Positions 3,454 through 62,241 of a DNA stretch of 64,000 bases are shown here, piece by piece. The stretch comes from Candidatus Nomurabacteria bacterium (lineage in GTDB: Bacteria > Patescibacteriota > Minisyncoccia > Phycocordibacterales > UBA9973). Location of the stretch: contig CP064958.1 in assembly GCA_016699085.1 (NCBI GenBank), positions 3,785 through 67,784 of the forward strand, written 5' to 3'. Position 1 is the stretch's first letter. Every line of letters begins with the position of its first letter. Under the pieces are notes generated by a model. The model worked only from the letters and a program-made list of their open reading frames with translations, did not search any database and was not told where the DNA came from. The translations under genes were made by a program, and so were the position numbers.

Positions 3454-5583
3454 TTAAATATATCGCTTTTGAAGTCCCCAGGTAATGATCATCATCATGA
3501 CACCAAGTATTGCAACACCGCTTGTTGCAGCACCCGTCTGTGGCAATGTCTCAGCATTTGCGCCTAAGACTTCGCCGCCCGTTGCTCCGCCACCACCGCC
3601 AGCATTACTTCCATTTTCAATCTTTGCTCCAAGTACTGCTCCACCACCTGATGTCGGACGACTGCCACCGGTAACCGTACCGTAGTAAGTGCCCCCAGGA
3701 AGTCCTCCACCAGGTGTAGTGTTTGTACCACCAGTAGTATCTCCTCCATTGCCACCACCTCCGCTTCCGGGAATATCATCATTAGTTATAGTGCATGTTT
3801 TGTTTTCATCTAAGCCTATAGTGATCGATCCTGCACTGTCGCAATCTCCACTGTAACTAACCTCATACCCAGTAGCACCCGTCTCTGTTACTGTATATGT
3901 TCCGACATTGACACTAGCACTTACTCCAGAGACAACTCCTGTTGCTCCGACAAACAATGGGAAGTCACTAACGATTCCTGTGCCTCCGTTATTATTGACA
4001 ACGACTTTCGTAACAGTCACAGTGCCAGTCTGAGTTCCACCACCACTACCTCCCCCACCAGGATCTTCGCAAGAATCAGGCTTTGTGTAGTAAGCATAGA
4101 ATCCATCAGCCTTTGGTGTCGTATGCATTTCAAAATTGACTGCGTCATCTACTATAGAGAATGAATCCTTTTGTGTATCCTTGAGTTCCATTTTATTAAA
4201 ATCAACATCGTTCGTAACACCCATTAGTGCTGCATTCATGAATGTAAGTGCTCCGATCGTGTGTTCATGACCATCATCTGTATGATTTGCGTATTGATTG
4301 AGTCTAACATATCCATCATTTCGTTCTATAGCAAATCCTTGGACATCTTGGTAACTAGCTATATCAGGATCGATAACTGATGCTACGCTATTACCAATAT
4401 AGAACCATGTATCTGTTGGAATTTTATTTGCTAGTGTATTACCACCAACGTAAACATCACTCGTCATGTTCCCTGCACTAGTATTTTCTAGTGTGGTCAC
4501 AGACACTTTAGCAAATGCCTTATCAGTACATACATTTGTATTTTGACATTGTACTGTACAAGATTCACTGGCGCCGCTTGTGTCGCATGATTCCCATGAT
4601 TGATTCACAGTACCATCACCACAAAATGCAGGAATGAGATCCTCACCGCCTGTATCATCAACAGTGTCGCAATTCGCAATGCCGATTCGTAAGTGGTAGA
4701 GAACTCCTGCAGTATTCAAAAGTGGATCATCGCTACCTGCCATATTGGTCACCTCGATTTTGATTGTATTTGTGCCTGCATGTAGGATGCTTGGATCAAT
4801 ATCATACTTATCTTGAGTTCCTAAAGTATAATTATCCTCACTTGCATCAGCGCCAACAGCTATATCATTTACCCACACCTGATAGGAGTTATCAGCCGCA
4901 ATCATAAGCTGTGCCTTAAAGTAGGTTTCGTCAACTGGCAATGTAAAATTTTTCTCAAATGTCTTTGTTTCCGCAATGCTTGGATTTTGAACGAGAAGAC
5001 TATCCCAAATCCAGGTTGCATTGGGTACATCTGCACTCCAAAGGCCATGTTCTGTTGTTGCCACAGCATTACCACCACCACTAACAGTATTCGCTGTATT
5101 GCTTAGGACAATCGCAGCGTCCATTTGGCATGAGTCGCCATAGGTATCCTGAAATACATCTAAAAATGGAGAGTCACTGTCTTCGAGATTGCTCACATAT
5201 ATGACACCATCGATAACGGTTTGATTTTCGAAAGCTTTCTCACTAGATTGATTTATAGTTTTCTGTATGGGGGCTGTAAATATGTCTCCTATTGCAGCTG
5301 ACATTGAAAGTACAGTTTCAATGACTGATGGAGTTTCAACGACTGTTTCAGTTGGAGGCAGAACTTCTTCTGTACTAACTGTCTCGTCTGAGATAACGCT
5401 TGGTATAGTCTCCTCTGTCATTGGCACAATAGGAGGTACTACTTCAGTAACTACATTTTCGTCTTCAGCATATGCTCGAAATGCAAAAGTATCGCCAAAT
5501 GCAATAGTAATAAATAAAAGCATACTTGCTGTAAGTATCCAAATATAGGCCTGATTCTTTGCGAGAATAGAATATGACTTCAT
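3454..5583 (-). CDS. LPXTG-anchored cell-surface protein (Gly/Thr-rich, Cys-rich module, Ig-like repeats)
   Basis: Signal peptide; C-terminal LPQTG followed by hydrophobic segment and KRYI positive tail; low-complexity GGGSGGG linkers. Confidence 0.8.
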   Translation of the reverse strand: MKSYSILAKNQAYIWILTASMLLFITIAFGDTFAFRAYAEDENVVTEVVPPIVPMTEETIPSVISDETVSTEEVLPPTETVVETPSVIETVLSMSAAIGDIFTAPIQKTINQSSEKAFENQTVIDGVIYVSNLEDSDSPFLDVFQDTYGDSCQMDAAIVLSNTANTVSGGGNAVATTEHGLWSADVPNATWIWDSLLVQNPSIAETKTFEKNFTLPVDETYFKAQLMIAADNSYQVWVNDIAVGADASEDNYTLGTQDKYDIDPSILHAGTNTIKIEVTNMAGSDDPLLNTAGVLYHLRIGIANCDTVDDTGGEDLIPAFCGDGTVNQSWESCDTSGASESCTVQCQNTNVCTDKAFAKVSVTTLENTSAGNMTSDVYVGGNTLANKIPTDTWFYIGNSVASVIDPDIASYQDVQGFAIERNDGYVRLNQYANHTDDGHEHTIGALTFMNAALMGVTNDVDFNKMELKDTQKDSFSIVDDAVNFEMHTTPKADGFYAYYTKPDSCEDPGGGGSGGGTQTGTVTVTKVVVNNNGGTGIVSDFPLFVGATGVVSGVSASVNVGTYTVTETGATGYEVSYSGDCDSAGSITIGLDENKTCTITNDDIPGSGGGGNGGDTTGGTNTTPGGGLPGGTYYGTVTGGSRPTSGGGAVLGAKIENGSNAGGGGGATGGEVLGANAETLPQTGAATSGVAILGVMMMIITWGLQKRYI

Positions 5584-5687
5584 TGTGGTAAAAAATTATT
5601 CTAGTAAAACTACTGTGGCTAAACTATGGCCTAGTAATCTCTTGTTCTTATAATGTCATACTTTAGGCACTAATGTCAACGCGCAAG

Positions 5688-6677
5688 TTAGACAAAAACA
5701 ACAAAAGATTTATTAATATAAAAGAGGACGAGCAAAAGGCAGATTACCCCAACCGTTAAAAATATCTTTCTTACATTATGAGCGCGCACTTCTACATACA
5801 TGGTACCGAGCAACGTCACCGTTAGGACGATCATAGTAACAAGATATATATCTTGAATGATATTTGGATAGGTTGATTGGATATGTGCAAACCATGTTGC
5901 ATAGCGTGTTGTGGTGGAGTTAGTATCATCCACCGCAGATTCTTGTCCAATATTCTCAACAATGATAGTTGTTGGTGTTTCACTAATCGCCACAATACTA
6001 TCTCGCTCAGTGGTTGCGCCTTTAATAGCTGACGCTACAGCTACCTCATCTGTGACAGATGGAGAAGGTTTGACTGTAGTATCAACAAGAACTGAAGGCG
6101 TTGTGAGAGTTTTGGCCGGTAGTGGTTTGCCAAAGAGTTCAACAACAAAAATACTTTTTGCGCCTTGATACATACCTTCTTTGACTGCAATACCAATATC
6201 TGTAAAGTTTTCATTTAAAAGATTGTCGCGGTGACTTATAGAATTCATCCATGCATGTTCGATATCTCCTGAATTTGCAAAATTGACTGCCAAATTCTCG
6301 CCTGCATATCTAAAGCGATAACCAGCAACATCAAACCAATACCACGGTGTCACACCCTGGGGTGACGTATGAGCAAAATAATTTTTTGCGATCATATCAT
6401 CAATTTTAAGATTTGCTGCTTTGGTCAAAAGTGGATCAATAGTTAAGGTCGGCTTATTATCAAGACTACGATCAATATTAGTCAGATCAACTAAAACCGA
6501 AGCAATAACTTCAGCGCCTTGTTTGGTAGTCGTAAGGATAAGCGAATTACCGAATGACGTGATGCACAACAAAATTGCGGCTATGCCAATCACCACAAGC
6601 GAAACTTCTCGCAAGAGATGTGGGTGGTACGCATTGCCTTCATGCGAAATAAAAAAATTTTTCAGTCGAGGTAGCAT
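5688..6677 (-). CDS. CAP/SCP (PR-1-like, YkwD-type) domain protein with N-terminal membrane anchor
   Basis: HTSPQG...GENLA...AWMNSxSHRDNLLNxxFTDIGIAV CAP signature. Confidence 0.65.
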   Translation of the reverse strand: MLPRLKNFFISHEGNAYHPHLLREVSLVVIGIAAILLCITSFGNSLILTTTKQGAEVIASVLVDLTNIDRSLDNKPTLTIDPLLTKAANLKIDDMIAKNYFAHTSPQGVTPWYWFDVAGYRFRYAGENLAVNFANSGDIEHAWMNSISHRDNLLNENFTDIGIAVKEGMYQGAKSIFVVELFGKPLPAKTLTTPSVLVDTTVKPSPSVTDEVAVASAIKGATTERDSIVAISETPTTIIVENIGQESAVDDTNSTTTRYATWFAHIQSTYPNIIQDIYLVTMIVLTVTLLGTMYVEVRAHNVRKIFLTVGVICLLLVLFYINKSFVVFV

Positions 6678-13441: not shown

Positions 13442-13834
13442 TTAATGGTATTTCCAAGCTGTTTGTTTCAATTCCTTTCGGATAGCACTATGGTTGGGCA
13501 CAAGTTCGGCCACTAAATTCCAAAAATTTGCAGAATGATTGAATTCCTTTATGTGGCACAATTCGTGCACTATTATATAGTCGGCAATATGGGGCGGTAA
13601 AAATAAAATTTTGTAATTAAAATTTAAATTCCCCTGCTTGGAGCAGCTACCCCAGCGGGATTTGGTATTTCGAATGGACACCCTTCCCACCTTATAACCA
13701 TAGTGAGTATTGAGCTCGCCAATCTTCTTATGCACCAACCCCCGAGCATCTTCTTTGTATTTTTTATAATCCCACCGAGTATACTTTTTCTTTCCTAAGA
13801 AATTTAAAATTCCGTTTAATGATATTAAAGAATT
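13442..13834 (-). pseudogene. N-terminally truncated YgjP-like (DUF45) metal-dependent hydrolase fragment
   Basis: RWGSC...DYIIVHELCHIKEFNHS (HExxH) matches C-terminal half of the full-length paralog at 15133..15882; open frame only from 13834, TTG start at 13738, in-frame stop at 13835..13837; about 110 N-terminal residues missing. Confidence 0.5.
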
Positions 13835-14193: not shown

Positions 14194-14832
14194 ATGTCAA
14201 AAAAAGACACTGGTTTAATGCTCTCTACAGTAAAGGGACCATTAGCAAATCTCCTTGATAATCTATCAGGAGCAAACGCCGGCTACTGGCTTAAAGTAGT
14301 TAAAAAAATCTTGAGAGGTGAAAATCCTTTCGCAGAGAGAGAAGCAGAGTTATCTGCTCAACGAACGCTTGTACTATCTTTTATTGTTGAAGTTGATGGG
14401 ACAAAACCCTACGGCTATGGTTTCGTAAGAAATCACAATTTCAATGAGGATAATTTTCCTATCAAGGATAAAACTAAGCGAACCGTAGTCATTGATGTGT
14501 TCCATTTCGGCACCCAATCAGCTGAGATTGATTTTGGACATCATCCTGTTACAACTAATTGGATGATTGGAAAAATGGAGAGGTATGGTTGTCGTCCCGC
14601 TAACACCGAAGAACTCGTGAGTTTAGCGAAATGCCACCCTGAAATCTTGAAAGATTTAAAAATCACAACACTCGATTTCAATTCAGCATGGCTTTATAAT
14701 GGCCGCGGAGGAGATTACGAAATCCCTGTACTAACACAGACAGAACATGGTCAAAATTTTATTGATTTGATTATGTACTTTAATGGTGTATGGGGAAAAG
14801 AACTTAGCTTTGCTGGTGTACGAATTCAGTGA
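14194..14832 (+). CDS. Hypothetical protein (only plus-strand gene in this island)
   Basis: 212-aa ORF, no recognisable motif. Confidence 0.5.
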   Translation: MSKKDTGLMLSTVKGPLANLLDNLSGANAGYWLKVVKKILRGENPFAEREAELSAQRTLVLSFIVEVDGTKPYGYGFVRNHNFNEDNFPIKDKTKRTVVIDVFHFGTQSAEIDFGHHPVTTNWMIGKMERYGCRPANTEELVSLAKCHPEILKDLKITTLDFNSAWLYNGRGGDYEIPVLTQTEHGQNFIDLIMYFNGVWGKELSFAGVRIQ

Positions 14833-15132: not shown

Positions 15133-15882
15133 TTAACTAGTCTGAACCCCGACAGTTTCCAGCTTATCCTTCACTTTCTCCCATTTCGGAAACTTCTTCT
15201 TCAAGAACTTATAAAAAAGTTTATTGTGACTTCTGTACTTCATATGGCACAACTCATGGACGATAACGTAGTCGATACATTCGCGTGAAGTATGAATGAG
15301 TTTTGGATTCAAAATGACCGTGTCGTTGTCGAGGAAGCTACCCCAACGCTTCTTCATCTCTCTAATAACAAGTGGTGGCATCTTCTTGTAATCAAACTTT
15401 GCTTGCATCAACTCGAATCGCTCATGGAAGACTCGGCCAACTTTTTCTTCGTACCACTTGTCCAAAAGTTTCTTGGTGTGTCGTCCATCCTGCACGCCTT
15501 TGCTTGTATAGACCATAAGCAATCCCTTGGTCATAGACACCTTGTCTTCACTCGAACGCTTCACCATGAGCTTGTACTGCTTGCCGAGATAGAGAAATCC
15601 TTCGCCTGAGACGTATTCCTTCTGGTACACGCGTCGCTGATACTTCTTGAAGAAGCTCAGTTGTTTCTCAAGCCAAAACCACTTCTTTTTTAAGAAGGTT
15701 TCTACTCGCTCATCTTCTGCGCCATGCGGAGCTTTAAGGGTTATTCCGAGGTCTGGTTTTACTGTGAGACTGAGAGTCAGTCTATCTTGCATGACGAGGT
15801 CGTAGTGGTAGACAAATGAGCCAAATACAAATTCTTTTTTAGCTGAAGATTTCATAATTGTTTTCTGCAAGTGAAAGGACAC
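15133..15882 (-). CDS. YgjP-like (DUF45) metal-dependent hydrolase, full length
   Basis: RWGSF...DYVIVHELCHMKYRSHN HExxH motif; position downstream of hsdR is typical for this family. Confidence 0.7.
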   Translation of the reverse strand: MSFHLQKTIMKSSAKKEFVFGSFVYHYDLVMQDRLTLSLTVKPDLGITLKAPHGAEDERVETFLKKKWFWLEKQLSFFKKYQRRVYQKEYVSGEGFLYLGKQYKLMVKRSSEDKVSMTKGLLMVYTSKGVQDGRHTKKLLDKWYEEKVGRVFHERFELMQAKFDYKKMPPLVIREMKKRWGSFLDNDTVILNPKLIHTSRECIDYVIVHELCHMKYRSHNKLFYKFLKKKFPKWEKVKDKLETVGVQTS

Positions 15883-18800
15883 TCGAAATGACGAGCTTCA
15901 TGTCGTCATCCGACAGGTCGATATTCTTCTCCTTCTTCACTACATCGTAGAGATAGTCATCGATAGTGTTCATGATGCGACGCTTCACGTCGATATTCTT
16001 GTACCAATCGACAATTGCTTCCTGCTTCACGATACCGAAGATATCCAAGACAATGGAGATAAACACTTCCTCTGGCATGTTGAACTTCTTGAAGCAATCC
16101 CTGAGGTTGCGGTAGAAGACATCAGAACCTTTCTCGGCAACGATGGTGCTAGGCAAACTATCGTCCTTCTTGTTAACCACATCGTCTTCAATCAACTTCA
16201 ACTGCTTGAGTGCGGCGACATCAGCTATCTTGCCGTCTCGCATCTCCTGCAAGATTTGAGAGATTTTCTTAGAGAATCGTTCGTAGAATTCGGGGTCAGA
16301 CTCCATCCGTTCAGTGATGGTCTTTTGGGTCTGTGCCGCGATTGCTTCGGCTTTGGATTTATCAGAGCCGAGGTTCTCAATAGCTTCCTCAAACTGCTTG
16401 CGGTCAGTGATGTTGATTTGTGTCGTCAAAAGCTCAACGCCTCGCGCATCAACATACTTATCGAGAATATTCACGAGAGATTGTTTGTACTCGGAGAGGT
16501 CAACGCGGTCTGCATACTTCAAACTCGCAGTCTTACGAAGCTCCATGAACTTCTTGAGCTCACGCGTGTACATATCGAGATGAGGAAAAACATGGACGAA
16601 ATCTTGCAGGACAAAACACTCGTTCAAGTTCTTAATGAACGAATTGAGTGCTTTGTAGAACATCTCCCGTTTTGGAGCATCATCAAGAAGCTGAAGAAAT
16701 GCTTCATCGTCGGATGACCCCTTAATCTCCTTGAAGATGTCGTGTACCAAGCTGTAGCTCTCCTCAAGTTCCTGCACCTTCTCAGCAACATCAATAAGCG
16801 TTCCTTTAACATCGTTCTCGTCGTAGTTACCGAAGAGCTTCATCGCAGTATCGATGTTCTTGGCATTCTCTGAATAGTCGATAATATAGCCCGCGGTCTT
16901 TGGGAGCTTCTTGTTTTCGTGTAAGCGATTCACACGAGCGATTGCCTGGAGCAGGTTATGGTCCCTCAAGTCCTTTGCGAGATAGAGTACGGTATTGCGT
17001 GGAGCATCGAACCCAGTGAGCAGTTTGTCGACAACGATAATGATTTCAATGCCATCATCGTTGTACTTGAAACTATCGATAGCATCCTTCTCATACTTCC
17101 CAACATTACTGTGATTCTCACGGACGGTATCGAGATACTTCACCACTTCCTTCTTGTGTGTGTCTTGCTCGTCTCCGTCATCGTGTTCATCAGAGATAAC
17201 GACAGCCGTGCGGACGTTTGCACGAGTCTGGAAGAACTTCTGGAAGAGTACTGCTGAATACTTAGACGGAGCAACAATCTGCGCCTTGAGTCCAGTGTTC
17301 TGGAAGTGGTGCATGAAGTGCTTCTCTATATCGTAGGCAATCTCAACAATACGTTGAGGATTGTCTTTGATTATCTTGGAGCCAACATACTTCTGGAGTT
17401 CCTTCTTCTGTTTGTCGTTGAGGTCTTCGGTAACGCGAGCAACGTGTCGGTCGATTTGTTCTTCGTTCTGAATCAAATCAACATAGCGACCTTCATAGAT
17501 AAGAGGAAGGATGATTTTGTCAGCCAATGCGTCATCGATGGTGTACTTGTCGATATAGCCACCGAACTTTCTCCAGCTCTCTTTCTCTCCCTTCATGAGT
17601 GGCGTACCCGTAAAGCCGATGTAGCACGCACTCGGAATGATTCGATTCATTTCTACGTTTGCGATACCACTCTGGCTTCGGTGTGCTTCGTCGATAAGAA
17701 CGAAGATGTTTTGGTCTTCATCAACAAATCCTGCCTTTTTCTTGGCAGCTGATTCAAATTTGTGAACCAGTGTCGTAACGACAGCGAGGTTTTTATCCCT
17801 GATGAGGTCGAGCAGGTTTTGACCACTCGTTGCCTGTATCACTTCTTTTTTGAGATTACAGTTCTTGAACGTATCTTTGATTTGTTTATCCAAGTCCTTA
17901 CGGTCGGTCACGATAATGACGCGTGGATTGTTTATGTGAGGGTTCTCAATCAGAGCTTTCACAAACATCACCATGGTGAGTGACTTACCAGACCCTTGTG
18001 TGTGCCACACCAAACCACCTCGGCGACGAGTGATACCTGAAGGGCTTGTCTCTGTCTCAGCAACACGCTCAAGCATCTTGTGAATTGCAAAGTACTGTTG
18101 GTAGCGAGAGAGTTTCTTTACTCCAGCATCAAAGAGAATGTAGTTCTTAGTGAGGTCGAGAAGTCGAGCGGGCTCAAAGAGTGCCGCGATGCCACGGTCT
18201 TGTTCAGTTGGGAGACGATTCATTTTCTGCACGTGACCTTCGGTGTATCCGTTTAGGTCAGTGAGAATCTGGGCGTATACAGTCGGGTCTACTTTTGTAG
18301 CAATCAGTGCTTTTGCTTTAGCATTTTCGTCTGCTTCAGGCGTACTTTTCTCTTTCCAGACTGCATAGAATTTATTTGGTGTGCCAATAGTGCCGTACTG
18401 AAGCTCTTTGCCGTTTGTACCAACAAGAAGTTGGGTGTAGGTAAAGAATTTAGGACAAAACTCTGGACCCTGATTGCGGTTCATCTGGTTAATAGCTTCT
18501 AGCGTTGCTACTCCTGACTTCTTGTTCTCAATGACCGCGATAGGGATACCGTTTACGAAACAGACGATATCGGGACGAATGGTTTGCTTTCCAGTCACGA
18601 CGAATTCTGCCGTCACATGGAAGGCGTTATTCTCTGGATTTTGGAAATCTATAAAACGGAAGTTTTTAGAAACTGTCTTTCCTCCAACGCTTACCTTGAT
18701 AGTCTTACCACCGCTTGTTGGCATGATGGTGTTGTAGATTTTCTGTGCGGTATCAATAAGACCTTCGTACTGAATATGTTCGAGCTCATCTATAGCGTCG

Positions 18801-19027
18801 CGTACGTCCTTCTCGCCGAATTTGTACTCAGTGCCAGCGACTTCGTAGCTGTTGATTTCCATGAGCTTCTCATTGGCAATATCAGTGAGAATGAAACTAC
18901 TCGTGTCACCACCGCGCTGACGTAGTGCCTCTTCAGTAGAGATGTATTTGTACCCCATAGCCAAAAGGAGCTCCAATGCTGGGAGTTGGGACTGTCGTGC
19001 TTCATCAAAGTGTACTTTTTCTAGCAT
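15839..19027 (-). CDS. hsdR: Type I restriction enzyme R subunit (HsdR)
   Basis: WHTQGSGKSLTM (motif I), VLIDEAHRSQ (DEAH), FTGTP, LQAIARVNR (motif VI); 1062 aa. Confidence 0.9.
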   Translation of the reverse strand: MLEKVHFDEARQSQLPALELLLAMGYKYISTEEALRQRGGDTSSFILTDIANEKLMEINSYEVAGTEYKFGEKDVRDAIDELEHIQYEGLIDTAQKIYNTIMPTSGGKTIKVSVGGKTVSKNFRFIDFQNPENNAFHVTAEFVVTGKQTIRPDIVCFVNGIPIAVIENKKSGVATLEAINQMNRNQGPEFCPKFFTYTQLLVGTNGKELQYGTIGTPNKFYAVWKEKSTPEADENAKAKALIATKVDPTVYAQILTDLNGYTEGHVQKMNRLPTEQDRGIAALFEPARLLDLTKNYILFDAGVKKLSRYQQYFAIHKMLERVAETETSPSGITRRRGGLVWHTQGSGKSLTMVMFVKALIENPHINNPRVIIVTDRKDLDKQIKDTFKNCNLKKEVIQATSGQNLLDLIRDKNLAVVTTLVHKFESAAKKKAGFVDEDQNIFVLIDEAHRSQSGIANVEMNRIIPSACYIGFTGTPLMKGEKESWRKFGGYIDKYTIDDALADKIILPLIYEGRYVDLIQNEEQIDRHVARVTEDLNDKQKKELQKYVGSKIIKDNPQRIVEIAYDIEKHFMHHFQNTGLKAQIVAPSKYSAVLFQKFFQTRANVRTAVVISDEHDDGDEQDTHKKEVVKYLDTVRENHSNVGKYEKDAIDSFKYNDDGIEIIIVVDKLLTGFDAPRNTVLYLAKDLRDHNLLQAIARVNRLHENKKLPKTAGYIIDYSENAKNIDTAMKLFGNYDENDVKGTLIDVAEKVQELEESYSLVHDIFKEIKGSSDDEAFLQLLDDAPKREMFYKALNSFIKNLNECFVLQDFVHVFPHLDMYTRELKKFMELRKTASLKYADRVDLSEYKQSLVNILDKYVDARGVELLTTQINITDRKQFEEAIENLGSDKSKAEAIAAQTQKTITERMESDPEFYERFSKKISQILQEMRDGKIADVAALKQLKLIEDDVVNKKDDSLPSTIVAEKGSDVFYRNLRDCFKKFNMPEEVFISIVLDIFGIVKQEAIVDWYKNIDVKRRIMNTIDDYLYDVVKKEKNIDLSDDDMKLVISSVLSLAENNYEIFS

Positions 19028-19033
19028 GGTGTT

Positions 19034-20260
19034 TTAGTTATGGGTTGATAATTTTTCTGGTGTCCGAATCGTTCCTGTAATGAGATTGTTCAAAAGATAC
19101 CGTTTTTGTTCTTGGAGAACTTTTAGCTTACGCTTAAGAACTTGAATTTCTTCGTCCGCAGTAGTAAGTATGTTTGCAATTGCATCTTGTTCGATTTTTG
19201 GAGGAAAAACAGCCTTAAAACCTTCAAAGACTTTAGCCGACAAATGTTTAACCGTTGTAGAACTAGTTTCTTGTTCGATTATTTTTAAAGGAACTTGAAT
19301 CTTATAGAAGAGATAGTCTTTATTTGCATTCTTAAATGCCACCAACTTTCCCACTCGTTGGTTTAAGAGAGCCTTGCCTTTAGACCATTTACAAGTCATG
19401 AAATCACCGTCCATCCCGATCAAAATATCCCCGTCCTGTACAGTGTAAGAATCTGGAATATCCGTCCCGGAATAGTACAAAATCTGACCATCTCCCTTTA
19501 AATCTCTATTTCTTACCACACGAACACCTCTCTCTTCAGAAAAATATTTAGACGGAAAAGGAAATCCGCTCCAAAATTTACATGCATCACCAAACGACTT
19601 GGATTCCCATTTGTCTTTAAACTCTGGTAAACGAGTTTTGCCCGTAAGTAATTCCTGCATCAAACCTTTTTTAATATGCTTTTTGTTTTCAATCTTCTGG
19701 GCAAGTTTTCCAATAGCTTTGTCCCAAGTCTCAAGTACTAAAACAATTCTTTTCTGCTCAGAAACGGGCGGGAGTTTTATGTTTACATGATTGAGTAAGG
19801 TGCCACTGGTTAGAGCACGGGTTGTGTATGAACTTTTCTCCATTATCTCTTTACGGGCTGATTGAGTACGAAAACAGTATTGAGCATATTCAGGAACTAG
19901 CACTTTACTTTTAGGACGAGCCCGTAGAACGAAGCCACTAAAAACAGTGTCTCGAAAGTCATCTAGTGCAACAGCAGAAAATCCGATTTCATCCAATGTT
20001 TCTGAGGTTCTAGTAAAAAAAACATCGCCTCTCTTTACATTGAATCTACCTAACTCAGATTTATTAACCTCAACTCTCCCTAATACATTATCTTTGTAGA
20101 GTCCACCGCCTTTATTAACGTCCATGTAATTGATTATCGGGGTGCCGTGTCCAAAAAACTCTTTTTCTTTGTTGAGTCCGTTTTTGAAATCAAAAAGACC
20201 TACGAGCTTCATAGCTCGCCATCCTTTCGGGATATTCTCTTGTATAGGTTTATTTTTCAT
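19034..20260 (-). CDS. hsdS: Type I R-M specificity subunit (HsdS), two target-recognition domains
   Basis: 408 aa, duplicated TRD architecture with conserved central and C-terminal coiled regions. Confidence 0.85.
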   Translation of the reverse strand: MKNKPIQENIPKGWRAMKLVGLFDFKNGLNKEKEFFGHGTPIINYMDVNKGGGLYKDNVLGRVEVNKSELGRFNVKRGDVFFTRTSETLDEIGFSAVALDDFRDTVFSGFVLRARPKSKVLVPEYAQYCFRTQSARKEIMEKSSYTTRALTSGTLLNHVNIKLPPVSEQKRIVLVLETWDKAIGKLAQKIENKKHIKKGLMQELLTGKTRLPEFKDKWESKSFGDACKFWSGFPFPSKYFSEERGVRVVRNRDLKGDGQILYYSGTDIPDSYTVQDGDILIGMDGDFMTCKWSKGKALLNQRVGKLVAFKNANKDYLFYKIQVPLKIIEQETSSTTVKHLSAKVFEGFKAVFPPKIEQDAIANILTTADEEIQVLKRKLKVLQEQKRYLLNNLITGTIRTPEKLSTHN

Positions 20261-21098
20261 CTAGCTTTTTAATGGCTCCGAGTTGTTGTGAAATGGATTG
20301 CAATTGCTTCTTCACCTCAGCGTCCTTATCTTTTTTCTTCTTTTCATCTATCTTTTGATCCAGGATTAGCTCAATTGAGAGCTTAAGTGGCAAGAAATAC
20401 TGCCGACACTCATCTTCAGAGAGTTCGTGCACGCCCCTACTTAGAATTCCGTATATTGCTTTCATTTCAACAAGCTGGCTTGGAAGATGTTCTTTAAGAA
20501 GAACGATTTTATCCTCCATCCTCGTAGTCTTAAATACATCAGCCGCAACCTTTAGATCTTTAGCTCCACTAAATGTTTCTTGGATAAGATTCTCAAAGAT
20601 TCGACGCAAATAAACAAATGAGCCCGCCCCTGCACCGTGAGCTGCAAGACCAATAGCTTTTTTAAGATTCTTCAAATCCTCTTCAGGAAGAACCTTGTCA
20701 TACTTTTTACCCAATTCAGCAAATTGCAGGTCAGCCAAAGATGGGAATTGGCCAACTTTCATGACTTGCTTGGTCATTTCATTCTTATATACAAAGAAAC
20801 ATAGAGTATCGTTGTCCTTTCTCTTGCACTTAAGAGTCACGACAGCAAAGCCGCTAACCTTTTCAGGTGTGTACTGATTTACATACTCTGTGTCTAGCTT
20901 TTTTATCCACGAAAAACCCACACTGTAGGTAGTGTCGGTGTGATTTTTTGCTGAGTAGGCATCTACGTCTTCAGAAAATAGCTCCAACGGTTTCTCAAGA
21001 TCAGAGTATTCAAATAATTCGTATATTGGGGTTTCAAAGTAAAAATCATGCTTAGTTAATTTCGCCTTTTCTAATTCTGTGTTCGCTTGTTCGGTCAT
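20250..21098 (-). CDS. Hypothetical protein embedded between hsdM and hsdS (possibly DUF4145-like)
   Basis: 282-aa ORF with start/stop overlapping neighbours; C-terminal region GLAAHGAGAGSFVYLRRIFENLI...LSRGVHELSEDE loosely resembles DUF4145 proteins often found in type I R-M loci; assignment by memory only. Confidence 0.55.
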   Translation of the reverse strand: MTEQANTELEKAKLTKHDFYFETPIYELFEYSDLEKPLELFSEDVDAYSAKNHTDTTYSVGFSWIKKLDTEYVNQYTPEKVSGFAVVTLKCKRKDNDTLCFFVYKNEMTKQVMKVGQFPSLADLQFAELGKKYDKVLPEEDLKNLKKAIGLAAHGAGAGSFVYLRRIFENLIQETFSGAKDLKVAADVFKTTRMEDKIVLLKEHLPSQLVEMKAIYGILSRGVHELSEDECRQYFLPLKLSIELILDQKIDEKKKKDKDAEVKKQLQSISQQLGAIKKLDEK

Positions 21099-21099
21099 A

Positions 21100-22614
21100 T
21101 TAGTTGATTCCTAGTTCCTTTAAATATCCGACCATTTGTTTTTCAAGCTTCTGAAGCTCAGGCTCAAGGGAGGCGAGCTCCTTGAGGTTTGCCTTAATAT
21201 CTACAGGCGCCTCTTCCTCGAAGGTATCGACATAGCGAGTGATGTTGAGATTGAATTCGTTTTCTTCTATCTCACTGACGCTGACCTTGCGAGAAAACTT
21301 CTCAATATCCTTCCTCTTCTTGTAGGTATCAAAAATCTTCACAATATTTTCCTCGGTCAGCGTGTTCTGTGCTTTGCCTTGCTTGAACTCCTTTGAGGCT
21401 TCGATAAATAGGACATCTTTCTTCTTTTCATTCGCACCACCTTTCTCGCGTGAACGGTCAATGACCAACACAGCAACTGGAATACCAGTAGTCTGGAAGA
21501 GTCCTGCTGGAAGTCCGATGACGGTATCGATAATATTTTCATTCAAGAGTTGCTCGCGAATCTTTCCTTCAGCACCACCTCGGAAGAGAACACCGTGAGG
21601 GACGATGACCGCGACGCGTCCAGTTTTTGGCTTTGCGGTTTCAACCATATGAGTGATGAATGCAAAGTCGCCTTTATCTTTTGGCGGTACACCACGCCAG
21701 AAGCGATTGTATTTATCTGACTCGGCATGTTCAGCACCCCACTTCTTGAGGGAGAAGGGTGGGTTCGCGACCACTACGTCGAAGTGCATGAGGCTGTCGT
21801 TCTCCACCAAGAGCGGATTGTTGAGCGTGTCGCCCCATTCGATACGAGCAGAGTCTTTGCCGTGGAGGAACATGTTCATACGAGCGAGCTGGTATGTAGA
21901 GCCAGTAGATTCCTGACCGTAGAGCGCATAGTTCTTTGAACCTTGCTTCTCAACTTCCTCACCAGCCAAGAGAAGTAGACCTCCCGAACCGCAGGCAGGG
22001 TCTGAAATTCTGTCACCCTCTTTTGGTTCGGCAAGCATTGCGACGAGATGTGCGACTGAACGTGTGGTGAAAAATTCTCCCGCTTTTTTGCCAGCATCCG
22101 CACCAAAACGCTCAATCATGTACATGTAGGAATTACCGATTATGTCATCGTCTACATCAGAGAGGTCAATCTTTGCAAAGTCCTGAATCAAATTACGGAG
22201 CATCTTGTTGCGCTGTTCAAGTTTGCCAAGGATTGATTCGGAGTTGAAATCGACACTGAACACGCCATCAAGTTTTTCCTTGTTAGCATCTTCAATGCGG
22301 TGAAGTGCTTTGTTTATTTCTTCACCAATATTATCCTCCTCAATCTTGCTGTAGAGATAATCAAAGGACGACTTCGGGGGTAGGTAGAAGCGGTCGAGCT
22401 TCATTTTTTCTTCGATACGCTTTTCGTCGCTTCCGAAACGCTCCTTGTATTCGTCGTGACGCTTTTTGTTGAGGTCACTTATATATTTCAAGAAAAGCAT
22501 CGTCAACGCATAGTCTTTGTAGACACCACCGTCCACGCTACTACGTGAAGAATCAGCCGCCGACCAGAGCGTCTTGTTGAGGTCTTCCTGTGTGTATTTT
22601 TTGTGAGTAGTCAT
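21100..22614 (-). CDS. hsdM: Type I R-M N6-adenine DNA methyltransferase subunit (HsdM)
   Basis: VVANPPFS catalytic motif IV, SAM-binding DPACGSGG motif I, 504 aa. Confidence 0.9.
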   Translation of the reverse strand: MTTHKKYTQEDLNKTLWSAADSSRSSVDGGVYKDYALTMLFLKYISDLNKKRHDEYKERFGSDEKRIEEKMKLDRFYLPPKSSFDYLYSKIEEDNIGEEINKALHRIEDANKEKLDGVFSVDFNSESILGKLEQRNKMLRNLIQDFAKIDLSDVDDDIIGNSYMYMIERFGADAGKKAGEFFTTRSVAHLVAMLAEPKEGDRISDPACGSGGLLLLAGEEVEKQGSKNYALYGQESTGSTYQLARMNMFLHGKDSARIEWGDTLNNPLLVENDSLMHFDVVVANPPFSLKKWGAEHAESDKYNRFWRGVPPKDKGDFAFITHMVETAKPKTGRVAVIVPHGVLFRGGAEGKIREQLLNENIIDTVIGLPAGLFQTTGIPVAVLVIDRSREKGGANEKKKDVLFIEASKEFKQGKAQNTLTEENIVKIFDTYKKRKDIEKFSRKVSVSEIEENEFNLNITRYVDTFEEEAPVDIKANLKELASLEPELQKLEKQMVGYLKELGIN

Positions 22615-22616
22615 GG

Positions 22617-23201
22617 TTATTTGATGGTTAAGCTTTTAAATGTTGCGTTGATAATGTTTTGTTTGATTTCCTTTTCTCTATCAATAATTTTTTGCTGTTC
22701 GCGAATGTTTATAAAAAGATTTATGAGTGCCTCCTGCTTTCGCAGGGGAGGTATCGGGATGTCTATTTTTTCTAACTCTTTACGAGGCAGTGCTCCGATG
22801 TATGAACCTGAAATAATCTGAGTGAGAGACTCCTGACCCTCTTTAGAATTTAAATAGTGTGAAAGATATTCTGGAAGTACTTCTTTCGAGGTGACACGGA
22901 TGACATGGACGGAGGAAGAAGGAATGACGTTCGATTCATCGGCAATATATGTGGTTGACCTGAATGCGCCTGACTTCATGCCACGAGCGACGAGAAGGAC
23001 ATCGTTCTTTTGGAGGTGACCGGAATACCCAGGGGTATCGTGAGATATTCTGGTGAGGGTTTTCGTATTATCAAACGGTACTCCTTGGACGAGGTCTTTT
23101 GCCTGAAATACAAAGAGGTCGCCAGTGTTGTCTGGCTTGATGGCACCTCGGAAGGTGTACCCTGCAATTACCTCTGATACTTCATGCAATTTCATATACA
23201 T
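22617..23201 (-). CDS. Half-size type I R-M specificity subunit (single TRD HsdS)
   Basis: 194 aa; one TRD plus conserved C-terminal helical spacer (LRKQEALINLFINIREQQKII). Confidence 0.65.
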   Translation of the reverse strand: MYMKLHEVSEVIAGYTFRGAIKPDNTGDLFVFQAKDLVQGVPFDNTKTLTRISHDTPGYSGHLQKNDVLLVARGMKSGAFRSTTYIADESNVIPSSSVHVIRVTSKEVLPEYLSHYLNSKEGQESLTQIISGSYIGALPRKELEKIDIPIPPLRKQEALINLFINIREQQKIIDREKEIKQNIINATFKSLTIK

Positions 23202-23372
23202 GAGTATAACTTACTGCATTGAAATGTAAAGTCAAGTACTTAAGGCCGTTAAAAAACTATTTATGCCCTTCTGATCCCACCGGACACGTATTCTTCCCCA
23301 TCGCGCCATAAAACCCACACCCTTCGACTCCGCTCCTTCGACTCTGCTCAGGACAAGTCAGGGCAAGCCAGC

Positions 23373-25544: not shown

Positions 25545-26792
25545 TTAATCGAAGTAATTTTTTAACCTCATGATCTTTTCGTTCTGACGGAGTTTGTCAT
25601 GGACTTTAGCTTCGATCTGACGAATACGCTCACGAGTAACGCCGAATTCTGAGCCAACTTCTTCGAGCGTGTGCTGTACACCATCGATGAGACCGAAACG
25701 CATTTCGAGAATCTTCTTCTCTTTGGGTGAGAGTTCGCTCAAGACTTCTTGGATCTTGTCAGTGAGTATTCTTCGTGAAGACTCTTGGTCAGGCCTGAGG
25801 ATTTTGTCATCAGGAATAAATTCACCACGAGTTGACTTCTCATCATCATCCCCGATTGGTTGCTCGAGTGAGATGGTGTCTTGGTTAATGTTTTCGATCA
25901 CGTGGACTTTCTCGACATCAATGCCCATTTCAGTTGCGATCTCTTCGGCAAGTGGCTCACGGCCCAAGTCTTGGGAGAGGCGGCGGACGACTTGTTTGTA
26001 TTTAGAAATAGTCTCAACCATGTGCACAGGAATACGAATCGTGCGAGATTGGTCGGCGAGCGCACGAGTGATTGATTGGCGGATCCACCATGTTGCATAG
26101 GTTGAAAATTTATACCCTTTGGTCCAGTCAAATTTCTCGACAGCCTTAAAGAGGCCCAAGTTGCCTTCTTGGATAAGATCAAGGAGGGTGAGGTCGGAAC
26201 TACGACCAACGTATTTCTTGGCAATAGAGACAACGAGACGAAGGTTCGCGCGAGCAAGCAAGTTCTTGGCTTCGAGATCACCCGCTTCGATGCGACGCGC
26301 GAGCTCTTTCTCTTCTTCGGCTTTGATGAGCGGGTACTGACCGATTTCTTTTAAATATATTTGGATTGAGTCGTAGGTAGAGTCCTTGCCGTATTTATAC
26401 TCGTTTTTATCTTTGACAATAGCATCAAGATCAAGCAAGTTACCACCCTCGAGCACATCGATTCCGGCTGCACCGAATTTCTCATAGAGATCATCAAGGA
26501 AAAGAATGTTCGTTTCAATATCTGGGAAAATTTTAAGTATCTCATCATAGGTGATAAAGCCACGCTTCTTGCCCTTTTCCACCATCGTCGTTGCTTTCTG
26601 TTCCAGAAGTTCAGCCTTGGTCAATTTCTTGCCAGAATGCATGACTGCTTTGGGTTCAGATTTCTTAGCTTGGACTTTAGTTTTAGCTTTAATAGGCACT
26701 TTCTTTACCACTACCTTTTTAGCCTTTGGTTTTGCGACAACCTTTTTCTTTGCCTTCACTACTTTTTTCTTTTTTGCTATTTTTTTACTCAT
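25545..26792 (-). CDS. rpoD: RNA polymerase sigma-70 factor RpoD with about 50-aa Lys-rich N-terminal tail
   Basis: Regions 1.2-4 conserved ([14 protein letters not shown], region 4 HTH); N-terminus [20 protein letters not shown]. Confidence 0.9.
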
Positions 26793-26803
26793 GCGTTTAT
26801 AAA

Positions 26804-28540
26804 TTATACTTGTTTACTTTTAATATCATGGATCTTTTTTGAAATCTGCTGGCATTCGCCGAGGAGCTCGAGGCTCCGTACCGTATCTTTATCACGTTCT
26901 GCTTTCTTAAGTTCGATAAGTAATTCTTGGAATCGCTTCTCCAGAAAATGTTTTTCAAATTGCAGCAAGAGTTCATTGGTTTCGGTTTCTAAACTCTCTT
27001 TGCCAGCCGTGAGAATTTCTGCCTGCAATGTGATATCATCTCTCACCTTCTCTTCGAGTTTGGCAATCTCTAGTTCGATAGCGCTTCCCGTAATACGTTC
27101 CCACTCAGTTTCGTATTGTATACGTGCTATTCTACTATCATTTCGCAAATGTCCAAGCAAATAGTAGCCAAGTAATTGCTCATAGAGCCGCTCAGCATTC
27201 GACTTGATAGCGATCGGCGTCTCGACATCTACTACCTCAGGGACAGCTGGCTTTTGTAATTTAGAAACTTCTTCATCTATGTATTTCGGTGCTATGTGCG
27301 CCAGATCAGCAATTTTTGAAATGTAGTGACCTTGCACGATGCGCGACTGTAAAAGCGCAACGTACGGTAATATTTGCTTCTGGATAGCGAGCATGCGTTT
27401 CTCTGCATCCATGTCCGTTCTAAAAAGAATATCTAAGTAAAAATCAATCACATGTTTACCGGCACCGGCAAGTTTCTCCCAGGCATCCGTACCATGTTCT
27501 AAAATATAGTCTGCTGGATCTTGCCCTTGTGGCAGGGACAAGAGAGACACTTCCATACCTTCAGCAAGCGCGAGTTTAACACTCCTGCCACCTGCTTCGA
27601 TACCTGCACTATCACCATCAAAGCAAAAGATGACATTGTTGGTAAATCGCTTGATGAGTGCTAGATGCTCTTTGGTAAGCGCTGTGCCTGATACAGCCAC
27701 ACTATGCTTCGTACCTGCTTGTTGTGCCATGATGAGATCCATTTGACCTTCGACCATAATGACGGCGTTTTCTTTGAGTATTGCTTGCTTGGCTAGATGA
27801 TAGCCATAGAGAATATGACTTTTGCTATAGAGTGCAGTTTCAGGACTGTTGACGTATTTGGCACTATCAGCAGGTACTGCGACTCCAGGATTTGCAAAAA
27901 TTCTTCCCGTGAATGCAACTACTTTGCCGCGACTATCCATAATCGGAAACATAATCCGATCTCGAAAGCGATCAAAGTAATCACGCTTGCCACGAATAAC
28001 GAGGCCTGCTTTGACCAACTCTTCATCACTATAATTTTTTGTTTTCAGATGTTCATAGAGCGCACTCCACGATGATGGTGAAAATCCGATACGAAATTCT
28101 TTGATGGTTTTCTCGGTCAGTCCTCTTGTTTGTAAGTATTTCTTTGCATGAGGATTGTTTGCCAGCAGGCCTTCATAAAATGAAGTCGCATCTTCCATGG
28201 CATCATGTAACCTCACACGCTCCCCGTCTTCTTTGGTGTACGTTTTCGTGAGTGTAATGCCTGCACGTTCAGCGAGAAGCTTGAGCGCAGCCACGAAATC
28301 TATACCCTCGATTTCTTGGACAAAGCTAAATATATCCCCGCCTCTGCCGCAGCCGAAACAGTGATAACTATTACGAGACGGGGAAACGAAGAACGAAGCA
28401 GACTTTTCATTATGGAATGGACAACGCGCCTTGAAATAGATTCCAGCTTTTTCAAGTCGAATGTAGGATGCGACAACATCATGGATCGGAAGGCGCTCTT
28501 TGATTTGTTCTGCCGGTGATTGCATAGATGGCAGGGACAC
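26804..28540 (-). CDS. dnaG: DNA primase DnaG
   Basis: [13 protein letters not shown]...CFGCGRGGD zinc-binding domain, TOPRIM domain (EGQMDLI, DGDSAG). Confidence 0.9.
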
Positions 28541-58963: not shown

Positions 58964-58992
58964 ACGCTGTACCTTATGGTCAGCGTTTTTTA
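58964..58992. terminator. Terminator shared by convergent genes
   Basis: acgctg-taccttatggt-cagcgt + T-run. Confidence 0.6.
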
Positions 58993-61900: not shown

Positions 61901-62238
61901 TTTAACCTATTAAACAATTCTTTAAGGAAAATAAACATGAAAAAACTAACACAGGCATAGGTGATTAAAGGCATTAATTTAAGAATAACTTCTACATTTA
62001 AGCCCAAATAAGCCATAAGTATATACGGCAATCTTGGAACAAGTCTAATTAACTGCTCAAGATTTGATTGAGATGTTAAATCATTCCAAAGTGGGAAATG
62101 ATATCTTATGAAACTCTCTTTAAAAATTGGGAAATTAAAATCCCTTTGAATAATTACACCGTTTTGTAGAAAAAGATAACCAAAAACTAAGATTGCGATC
62201 AGAGTAAATAAAAAAAAGTAATTTCTATTTTTAAACAT
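58990..62238 (-). CDS. Very large polytopic membrane protein with big extracytoplasmic domain (YfhO/GT-C-like?)
   Basis: 1082 aa, about 12 N-terminal TM helices, C-terminal TM; adjacent to polysaccharide-modifying genes. Confidence 0.6.
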   Translation of the reverse strand: MFKNRNYFFLFTLIAILVFGYLFLQNGVIIQRDFNFPIFKESFIRYHFPLWNDLTSQSNLEQLIRLVPRLPYILMAYLGLNVEVILKLMPLITYACVSFFMFIFLKELFNRLKIKYSNFSFVPLILGSLFFAYSPTPLQFFWEISLILSLGVLPLLLFLILRYSEKNYKKFIILFALTLLLSVGHPFILIMNLIVSFVFSVLVLKSNIIREFRNFSLIAILFGALFLWFILPYISSGLKNSVDLGHSSNVEKNTFEIVSDNNLARILVTERDRFTYIKTTPDNALYKVIHNFSLYGVLFLSFFILYFKKQNKIIWFASIGFLVCTLLAFGQKSLAGGFYWWFIDSTPIGWIFRSPLKFQLYQVFFLSILFALSANSLLYKYKFVKLVNIRANTFLGVIFSLIIIGSSIFGIIDSNINSMNPIKIPSPYYEITDLLKEKPDSYKVLWYPRYGEIKTSWSEGHMIGPFDMKSSINPTYNTNWNYNYIVENLYDIPYAANLFNRNDYYNYLSVLGVGYVVFHNDRYYSIDNEALDSMKKNMSLIYEKDGWYLFKLNGITADLFTVNNCTIFSNQILIPDNINCPYVKNLHGDNQFQFIDTFDKEDLLMNKKIFSPLSTIDVVLPPDSIDKVIGWKFTQKIGSWLTILKNQQKDLWIDYTDFTNRKGFFYTSAPSILPKFNLSNDTKFLSVKDSEDISIGWETNLTKEQKLYMNEINGGFIVKLEAPSQGWKTIKSPLIPMQYNEYSKFNFSIKTSNASSVHVKLFEYDANETHIGSEFGEIAKFIENGTSNWEKQSIYITPTNVDTSFIQIQIWYEDDIDITSSVKIEMKDFSLYNLNEYREPNMMQLPFVLDKDESYLFFIKYLKNENGGNFDVYIDDNYLTTIQTKDYSNNFSWSQKIPFELDKGEHLFGIKNNMGFNAIGEVLFATEAEFNSENEFYNQILDKFKVINLNESNKATSKLLETLNDSETNIIEVKKIGPTKYKLIIETNKPFLLSFTESFDPSWVATIDKNIYKSEQIYSTINGFWIEDTGLVNIVLEYKPQKYFLIGVLISGVTLLGCVGYLLVTSKKLQVKRWFKKKEVEK

Positions 62239-62241
62239 ACA

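Follow-up and report, generated by a model that had tools for sequence, protein, structure and literature searches.

Genes embedded in type I restriction-modification (R-M), BREX, and DISARM operons are mostly defense genes (Payne et al., bioRxiv 10.1101/2024.01.29.577857), and TgvAB of Vibrio cholerae is one such embedded defense system (PMC11411939). RAZR is a single-gene abortive-infection system that joins a zinc ribbon to a DUF4145/HEPN RNase; its zinc-finger domain, the most variable part of the protein, senses ring-shaped phage proteins, after which the DUF4145/HEPN domain cleaves RNA and aborts the infection (PMC13017515). HEPN families also occur in R-M operons, and the fusion of a DpnII/MboI N-terminal domain, which may correspond to Pfam PF18742, to DUF4145/HEPN has been described (Anantharaman et al. 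2013, PMC3710099). With respect to specificity subunits, the hsdRSMS locus of Staphylococcus xylosus contains a 191-amino-acid hsdS_short, hsdM, and hsdS_long; the short S subunit shows conservation from end to end and is never a partner in recombination with the long one, and correct methylation in Escherichia coli was observed only when the short S was present (PMC10030836). Engineered single-domain S subunits are able to act as homodimers on palindromic sites (PMC3874165). In this study, we analyzed a type I R-M operon of a Candidatus Nomurabacteria bacterium (Patescibacteria; contig CP064958.1, positions 3,785 to 67,784, a stretch of 64,000 nucleotides that we call the window), which carries a 282-amino-acid open reading frame (ORF), here named X, between hsdM and a long hsdS gene.

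We propose that X is an autonomous, RAZR-like abortive-infection effector, a single protein riding in the type I operon, and we put the probability of this reading at about 0.5. It is favored because X is a lone gene, has a fast-evolving N-terminal domain of the zinc-ribbon type and a conserved, HEPN-like domain with an invariant His at its C-terminus, and is often found in R-M loci, a combination that parallels RAZR. In this scheme, the variable N-terminal domain would sense a phage product, and the conserved C-terminal domain, which probably forms a dimer or oligomer, would respond by cleaving RNA or by arresting growth in another way. Embedding would give X co-transcription and co-transfer with the restriction system, and X would act as a second line of defense without an obligatory physical partnership with the R-M enzyme. 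For X, we infer a defense role, a relationship to HEPN, a division into sensor and effector, and RNA as the target.

The genes of the operon and the parts of X are listed below in window coordinates, in the order of transcription and followed by a candidate promoter.

22617..23201, minus strand: short hsdS (HsdS_short), the first gene of the operon; 194 amino acids with one target recognition domain (TRD) and a C-terminal helix; one PF01420/Methylase_S domain (E 1e-10).
21100..22614, minus strand: hsdM, type I N6-adenine DNA methyltransferase; 504 amino acids; HsdM_N PF12161 (E 1e-22), N6_Mtase PF02384 (E 5e-101), PADLOC MTase_I (E 5e-126).
20250..21098, minus strand: X, the ORF embedded in the slot between hsdM and the long hsdS; 282 amino acids; uncatalogued family.
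20745..21059, minus strand: N-terminal beta-sheet domain of X, a putative sensor; residues 14-118, strands in 45-118; zinc-ribbon-derived in our reading.
20253..20744, minus strand: C-terminal helical domain of X, a putative effector; residues 119-282; HEPN-like bundle and a long terminal helix.
19034..20260, minus strand: long hsdS, the variable specificity subunit; 408 amino acids with two TRDs; two PF01420 stretches; PADLOC Specificity_I (E 3.5e-66).
15839..19027, minus strand: hsdR, restriction/translocase subunit; 1062 amino acids; HSDR_N, SWI2_SNF2, ResIII, T1R_D3-like, and T1RH-like_C domains; PADLOC REase_I (E 2.5e-146).
15133..15882, minus strand: YgjP-like (WLM/SprT-like) gene of the metallopeptidase fold; 249 amino acids; PF01863 (E 1e-51); the conserved last gene of the operon.
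23203..23230, minus strand: candidate sigma-70-like promoter just upstream of the short hsdS; TTTACA-16-TATACT, score 10/12.

Judged from its sequence, the locus is an intact type I R-M operon of the "short S plus long S" kind. The sequence hallmarks of a type I system were recognized by Pfam and PADLOC: an HsdM with both of its domains, an HsdS with two TRDs, and an HsdR that combines a nuclease N-terminus with a superfamily 2 motor. An earlier note, made from the sequence alone, had given the gene order on the minus strand as half hsdS, hsdM, 282-amino-acid ORF, hsdS, hsdR, and YgjP-like gene, and the ORF calls and domain scans agree with it. The note had also described the 282-amino-acid ORF as overlapping its neighbors by a few bases. 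This holds on the side of the long hsdS, whose start overlaps the end of X by 11 nucleotides (ATGAAAAATAA), but not on the side of hsdM, where the junction reads TAA-T-ATG and leaves a gap of 1 nucleotide. Its conclusion that X is part of the operon stands: X is a co-transcribed insert and the most interesting gene of the locus. Further downstream, the start of the YgjP-like gene overlaps the end of hsdR by 44 nucleotides if the GTG start is taken. The promoter in the list is a candidate only, because such sites in this region are not above their counts in shuffled sequence.

X belongs to a large family that has escaped cataloguing. Its relatives number 1,732 when clustered at 90% and form 2,447 clusters at 50% identity (E<=0.001); none of them carries a precomputed Pfam domain. 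X itself had no match in Pfam (E<=10), NCBIfam, or PADLOC (E<=0.1), and its exact copy is on record as hypothetical protein IPF86_00145. A set of 142 diverse relatives likewise gave no meaningful match in Pfam (E<=0.1) or PADLOC (E<=1), nor did four consensus sequences of the family in Pfam at E<=10. PHROG 25239, a family of unknown function, matches X with E 3e-8, and a tblastn search of X against phage genomes returned no match. When the sequence profile of X was compared with all PDB chains, two matches were obtained at chance level, one of them the zinc-ribbon protein eL42 at E 0.19. Hidden Markov models (HMMs) of the two X domains found no distant paralogues among all ORFs of the retrieved loci, and the extra regions of longer family members (P0131, P0214, P0080, and others) contained no Pfam domain.

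Several candidate assignments were examined and rejected. The earlier note had seen a loose resemblance of the C-terminal half of X to DUF4145, which the HMM searches do not bear out: PF13643 matched neither X (E<=10), nor the 142 members (E<=0.1), nor the consensus sequences (E<=10), and by these searches X is not a member of DUF4145. The RAZR/PD-T7-4 model of PADLOC had no match to X (E<=0.1) or to the 142 members (E<=1). The PDC models of PADLOC gave only scattered single matches with E values of 0.002-0.01, which most likely stem from the coiled-coil-like tail. Some members are labeled "short-chain dehydrogenase," namely the gene at 5668-6504 of locus L087 (Bacillus cereus plasmid NZ_CP045607.2), proteins P0069 and P0093, and a member on plasmid NZ_CP065917.1; these labels come from RefSeq/PGAP for the plasmids and from GenBank for the proteins of metagenome-assembled genomes. 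No dehydrogenase domain is detectable in them, and the name is probably a propagated misnomer. As a separate observation, several homologues in our alignment A3 show Trp at near-invariant Gly positions (the GxGxG loop at window residues 155-159, G116, and G222), which is probably UGA read as Trp in genomes of Gracilibacteria or Absconditabacteria, where UGA encodes Gly (code 25).

The AlphaFold2 model of the whole protein (mean predicted local distance difference test, pLDDT, 90.8) divides X into a beta-sheet domain at residues 14-118 and a helical domain at residues 119-282 that ends in a helix of 50 residues; folded alone, the C-terminal domain reached a pLDDT of 95.3. The two domains differ in conservation, with a mean pairwise identity of 24% in the N-terminal and 52% in the C-terminal domain. 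In 78 of the 142 diverse members (55%), the N-terminal domain carries a putative metal site of the CCCH type, Cys49/Cys52/Cys91/His97 in window numbering (Cys-x2-Cys ... Cys-x5-His). The window X and its whole clade have Ser, Asn, Cys, and Asp at these positions, and the site is degenerate. To judge from profile and fold comparisons, in which eL42/L44e, a ribosomal protein with a zinc ribbon, was matched weakly, the N-terminal domain would be zinc-ribbon-derived, its metal site having been lost in this clade.

Most of the conserved residues fall in the C-terminal domain. K114 at the domain border, R165, P206, H224, and L226 are invariant in all 142 members, and R166, E169, Y216, S220, E228, and C231 of the C-terminal domain are 97-99% conserved; the domain also has a conserved GxGxG loop. 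His224 immediately precedes the last helix, which is also where HEPN domains have their His. At the position three residues before it, 101 of the 142 members have a basic residue (Lys in 96, Arg in 5) and the remainder have other residues. When the C-terminal domain was compared with the PDB, the matches with the best template modeling (TM) scores were five independent HEPN structures: 1ufb (TT1696), 1o3u (TM0613), 2q00, 1jog (HI0074), and AbiV. The superposition on 1o3u gave a TM score of 0.60 with a root-mean-square deviation of 4.2 A. The full-length model had weak matches to RnlA NRD-HEPN and to a phage "RNaseLS-like" protein.

We surveyed the genomic setting of the family in 80 loci from one-genome-per-species collections. 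X lies inside type I operons in 10 loci, always after hsdM, and inside type III-like systems in 5, in the orders Mod-X-Res, Mod-X, X-Mod, or SNF2-X-Mod. Examples are Mod-X-Res in L016 (4749-10110) and SNF2 helicase-X-Mod in L032 (5113-10501), with gaps of -16 to +20 nucleotides; in L054 (5143-11445), X overlaps the SNF2 gene by 16 nucleotides, and a 256-amino-acid ORF lies between X and a 579-amino-acid gene that clusters with the Mod genes. A DNA methyltransferase is the immediate neighbor in 14 loci, and these enzymes belong to three classes (N6_Mtase, N6_N4_Mtase, and C5). All-against-all clustering of the neighbors revealed no conserved partner gene beyond the R-M subunits and a serine recombinase. 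Other copies of X lie amid ordinary genes (amidase, DsbA, LepA, UvrA, and tRNA synthetases) or, in the case of a Bacillus cereus plasmid, within a region resembling a prophage. Close relatives of the window X are found both embedded and solitary, those with 57-68% identity standing alone among housekeeping genes. In a marine-sediment Patescibacteria contig (L001, 8701-9907), a 268-amino-acid X homologue follows a DUF5343 gene and a gene with a DpnII-MboI domain. Members come from Patescibacteria, Bacteroidota, Pseudomonadota, Bacillota, cyanobacteria, Planctomycetota, and others; such a patchy spread over many phyla is typical of mobile defense genes.

The position of X within the operon can be understood from its sister operons, which share a conserved chassis of hsdS_short, hsdM, slot A, hsdS_long, slot B, hsdR, and ygjP-like gene. 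The gaps flanking the long hsdS are cargo slots for differing anti-phage genes across genomes. Slot A, which separates hsdM from the long hsdS, is occupied by X in the window, L019, and L077; the Shedu gene SduA in L088 and L095; a 604-amino-acid AAA_21/AAA_15 ATPase in L089; ThsB_TIR and ThsA_Macro genes, a Thoeris-like pair, in L091; and genes of unknown function in L090 and L093, while it is empty in L094. Slot B, between the long hsdS and hsdR, contains RhuM or Bro-N genes or small ORFs and, on an Acinetobacter plasmid, a NucS-like gene together with an Abi-family gene. X occupies the same position in a second type I lineage, whose hsdM is fused to MerR (569-583 amino acids); there it is often found together with Shedu, SMODS/AGS_C, or Bro-N cargo and beside a large serine recombinase. 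This pattern of cargo matches the published finding that embedded genes are mostly defense genes (bioRxiv 10.1101/2024.01.29.577857; PMC11411939). The earlier note had named the embedded ORF as the most likely defense-associated gene of the locus, and this is supported by the embedding itself, by the Shedu, ThsB-TIR/ThsA-Macro, and AAA_21 genes that fill the slot in sister operons, and by the presence of X in type III R-M systems as well.

Large serine recombinases were also observed directly beside related type I operons, with or without X (L086, 2824-4149; L091, 7619-8953; L093, 7621-8958; L090, 2346-5021). In L091 and L093, an N6_N4 methylase is present in addition, and L091 has a weak terminase-like gene. 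These observations suggest that the operon is mobile in its entirety, in the form of an integrative island.

Several points weigh against reading X as a RAZR-like effector. No HMM ties it to DUF4145, HEPN, PD-T7-4, or a PADLOC candidate. The structural matches to HEPN domains are not significant (E>=0.68, TM scores of 0.4-0.6) and lie within reach of any up-down helical bundle. The canonical HEPN motif Rx4-6H is absent, as there is no Arg 4-6 positions upstream of the invariant His224 across the 142 members. The RAZR chains 9Y9C and 9Y6U were not among the best 50 of 408 Foldseek matches to the full-length model, nor among the best 50 of 90 matches to the C-terminal domain. Moreover, the zinc site is degenerate in X, and a sensor of the zinc-finger type may therefore not apply here. 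Because the fold matches are not significant and Rx4-6H is missing, "HEPN-like" is to be taken as a lead and not as a result. Finally, about 80% of the loci have no R-M neighbor. This last point bears on the proposal in two ways: the occurrence outside R-M systems also suggests that X works on its own and not as part of an R-M enzyme, and the solitary and prophage-like placements fit such a gene. The earlier note had regarded a match to a housekeeping family, together with occurrence outside R-M contexts, as evidence against a defense function; the latter was found in those 80% of loci, whereas no match to a housekeeping family was obtained.

The main rival to an autonomous effector is that X is a guard of the R-M system in the manner of PrrC or Ronin, kept inactive by HsdM/HsdS (or Mod) and freed as a toxin when a phage anti-restriction protein such as Ocr, ArdA, or Stp disables the enzyme. 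Wherever X is embedded, it does directly adjoin a methyltransferase gene, either hsdM (hsdM-X, in both type I lineages) or Mod (Mod-X or X-Mod, in type III), and the junctions are very tight, with 1-5 nucleotides or overlaps. DNA-mimic inhibitors act on type I as well as type III enzymes, and effectors that are tied to R-M and kill the cell as a backup have been documented (bioRxiv 10.1101/2023.04.06.535777; bioRxiv 10.1101/2024.01.29.577857). However, only about 20% of the species-level loci are embedded, relatives with 57-68% identity sit alone among housekeeping genes, and unrelated autonomous systems (Shedu, Thoeris-like) occupy the same slot. PrrC, unlike X, occurs almost only in embedded form (Payne et al., bioRxiv 10.1101/2024.01.29.577857), and a PrrC-like restriction to type I loci was not observed for X, with 10 of the 80 loci being type I, 5 type III-like, and the rest without an R-M neighbor. 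We consider such a guard unlikely. The consistent adjacency to methyltransferases of three classes would also be expected of a non-catalytic accessory or regulatory R-M factor, one that, for example, tunes the methyltransferase or alleviates restriction on establishment in a new host and is no toxin. The lack of the canonical HEPN catalytic motif would agree with this, and non-catalytic HEPN-like domains are common (PMC3710099). Such a role nevertheless seems improbable to us, as most occurrences are solitary, no DNA-binding domain was detected in X, and the polar set of K114, R165, R166, E169, S220, H224, and E228 together with the GxGxG loop resembles an active or ligand-binding site.

It is also conceivable, and in our judgment quite unlikely, that X has nothing to do with defense and happens to enter variable spots, R-M operons among them, either as a passenger that is selfish or neutral or as a protein of the housekeeping type. 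Many of its loci do have ordinary neighbors, no defense model matches it, and some records carry the dehydrogenase name, which has no Pfam support. On the other hand, at least 15 of the 80 species have X inside a type I or type III operon and in the orientation of that operon, which, given the rarity of DNA methyltransferase genes, we estimate to be far above the value for a random gene. It shares its slot with Shedu, TIR, and ATPase defense genes, occurs in prophage-like and recombinase-linked settings, and is distributed patchily over many phyla. The autonomous effector remains our preferred reading. A bolder version of it is tentative and, as a whole, doubtful: X would found a widespread, uncatalogued family of single-protein immune systems (about 2,450 clusters at 50% identity, from Patescibacteria to Pseudomonas, Bacteroidota, Bacillus, and cyanobacteria) in which a zinc-ribbon-derived sensor controls a HEPN-like effector with a non-canonical site, made of an Arg pair from an earlier helix and His-x3-Glu in place of Rx4-6H, and which would represent a new kind of anti-anti-restriction guard.

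We further analyzed the two hsdS genes. At least 120 homologues of the short hsdS were found, with lengths of 185-221 amino acids (mostly 192-196) and identities of 49-97% over 88-100% of the query. Their alignment shows conservation along the whole length, in the recognition domain as well as in the terminal helix. In all 7 homologue loci examined, which represent several lineages, the short S lies directly upstream of an hsdM of about 503 amino acids, and the shared order continues with a long S of about 400 amino acids, an hsdR of about 1062 amino acids, and the YgjP-like gene; L091 stops within hsdR, and the last gene cannot be judged there. A YgjP-like gene follows hsdR in L088-L090 and L093-L095, and also in L019, L077, in L086 from the lineage with the MerR-fused hsdM, and on the Acinetobacter plasmid, that of Acinetobacter pittii, which carries a more distant operon with short S and long S. 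Across the sister operons, identities are 57-68% in short S, 87-97% in HsdM, 80-94% in HsdR, and 30-55% in long S, and the long S is just 30-55% identical among sister operons whose hsdM genes are 78-97% identical. The more distant L019 and L077 have a different TRD type in their short S, with an identity of 25-36%.

The earlier note had taken the extra hsdS to be a module for specificity switching. Two hsdS genes do lie within one operon, and phase-variable switches in which recombination shuffles TRDs are well known (PMC7394358). However, both genes share one strand, and no direct or inverted DNA repeat links them above chance, the best being a pair of 30-nucleotide arms at 80%. At the protein level, their faint similarity (E 0.005) is confined to the C-terminal helix. 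The note's own remark that no invertase and no obvious inverted repeats are visible thus agrees with our repeat comparison, and neither the ORF list nor the Pfam scan contained a recombinase adjoining the operon within the window. Moreover, the short S forms a conserved family of its own, fixed in length, whose members head operons of this type in many phyla. We consider a recombinational switch very improbable and effectively refuted. Nor is the half hsdS a decayed pseudogene, an outcome that the note had said would count against its view, as it is conserved over its full length, including the TRD. The short HsdS is a conserved accessory subunit of the specificity type that belongs to this operon family, and it is neither a remnant nor a recombination partner. 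By analogy with the staphylococcal hsdRSMS, the short S may be required together with the long S for correct methylation, or it may act as a homodimer on palindromic sites.

Other features of the window lie near the operon. A 98-amino-acid ORF at 13442-13738 on the minus strand matches PF01863 positions 118-206 (E 3e-34) and represents the C-terminal half of another YgjP-like/WLM metallopeptidase, with about 140 N-terminal residues absent; its identity to the 249-amino-acid copy in the operon is just 27%. This ORF may have been left behind by an earlier R-M island or may be a mini-protein. Between this fragment and the operon, on the opposite strand, lies an ORF of 212 amino acids (14194-14832, plus strand) with no significant match in Pfam, NCBIfam, PADLOC, or PHROG. 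The genes dnaG and rpoD are located at 25545-28540, 2-5 kb from the operon, and in L084 a 68%-identical X homologue (4738-5568) stands alone about 3.5 kb upstream of dnaG-rpoD; this neighborhood may be a variable spot in these genomes. Farther away, the region 59001-63000 has a G+C content of 28-30%, compared with about 40% elsewhere, and contains a 1082-amino-acid ORF (58990-62238, minus strand).

If our proposal is true, a large family that is absent from Pfam, NCBIfam, and PADLOC acts against phages as an effector encoded by one gene. Cultured bacteria with members of the family include Pseudomonas mandelii, Massilia, Paenibacillus etheri, Hymenobacter, and Tenacibaculum, and Bacillus cereus plasmids carry them as well, making the proposal directly testable. 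The little-known "short S plus long S" architecture of type I systems, so far reported from staphylococci, is widespread, being present in Patescibacteria, Pseudomonadota, and Verrucomicrobiota. As a chassis with defined cargo slots for other defense systems, it is also a practical place to look for new defense genes. Embedded defense genes, effectors that combine a zinc finger with HEPN, and type I variants with a short S are already known; what is new is an uncatalogued large family with a non-canonical conserved site, and the wide occurrence of the short-S chassis with its defined cargo slots outside staphylococci. Because the general principles have already been published, the advance consists of a new family and a new carrier and not of a new concept.

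Among known effectors, RAZR/PD-T7-4 resembles X in several respects. Both are single polypeptides of similar size, encoded by lone genes in many phyla. In both, the N-terminal domain, a zinc ribbon in RAZR and a putative derivative of one in X, is the most variable part, and the conserved helical C-terminal domain, HEPN in RAZR and HEPN-like in X, contains a His that is essential in RAZR and invariant in X. They differ in that the PD-T7-4 and DUF4145 models do not match X and in that the X family has a CCCH site, lost in this clade, rather than Cys4. In addition, the N-terminal domain of X is longer (about 105 amino acids) with a large beta sheet, and X has a long C-terminal helix. Instead of an Arg 4-8 residues before the His, X has an invariant Arg pair in an earlier helix. 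The DUF4145 and other HEPN families of R-M operons share with X the helical domain with a conserved His before the last helix, and they too occur in R-M operons, fused to or beside zinc ribbons; the X homologue in L001, with the DpnII-MboI-domain gene just upstream, would be a comparable arrangement if the fused domain corresponds to PF18742. X fails HMM membership in DUF4145 and lacks Rx4-6H, and with respect to this motif it comes closest to the "c2405" group, in which the His is kept and the Arg lost. As to DS-38 of DefensePredictor (HEPN and zinc finger), the only zinc-finger system found in the tables (Science version) was HEP2, which may or may not be DS-38 and has 366 amino acids with the zinc finger at the C-terminus.

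As an R-M insert, X resembles PrrC of EcoprrI and Ronin in being a gene wedged between type I subunit genes that plausibly provides a second line of defense. However, PrrC, an ABC-ATPase that acts as an anticodon nuclease, is nearly confined to type I loci, whereas X is mostly solitary and unlike it, and RonA of Ronin is a membrane peptide of 61 amino acids, which X does not resemble either. The operon itself is closest to hsdRSMS of S. xylosus. In both, a one-TRD short S of about 190 amino acids lies directly upstream of hsdM with a two-TRD long S downstream, conservation of the short S extends from end to end, no repeats or regions are common to short and long S, and the genes are co-oriented and tightly packed. 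Here, in contrast, hsdR comes last, followed by the ygjP-like gene, and a cargo gene is inserted between hsdM and the long S. The likeness is one of architecture, as no Staphylococcus match to the short S was found among plasmids at E<=1e-5; the short S of the present family also diverges faster than HsdM (57-68% versus 87-97% identity) and has a second TRD type in L019 and L077. Compared with embedded defense genes in general, X has no match to the PDC candidate models of PADLOC-DB 2.0.0, but like them it lies on the same strand inside a type I operon, in a slot that it shares with known defense systems.

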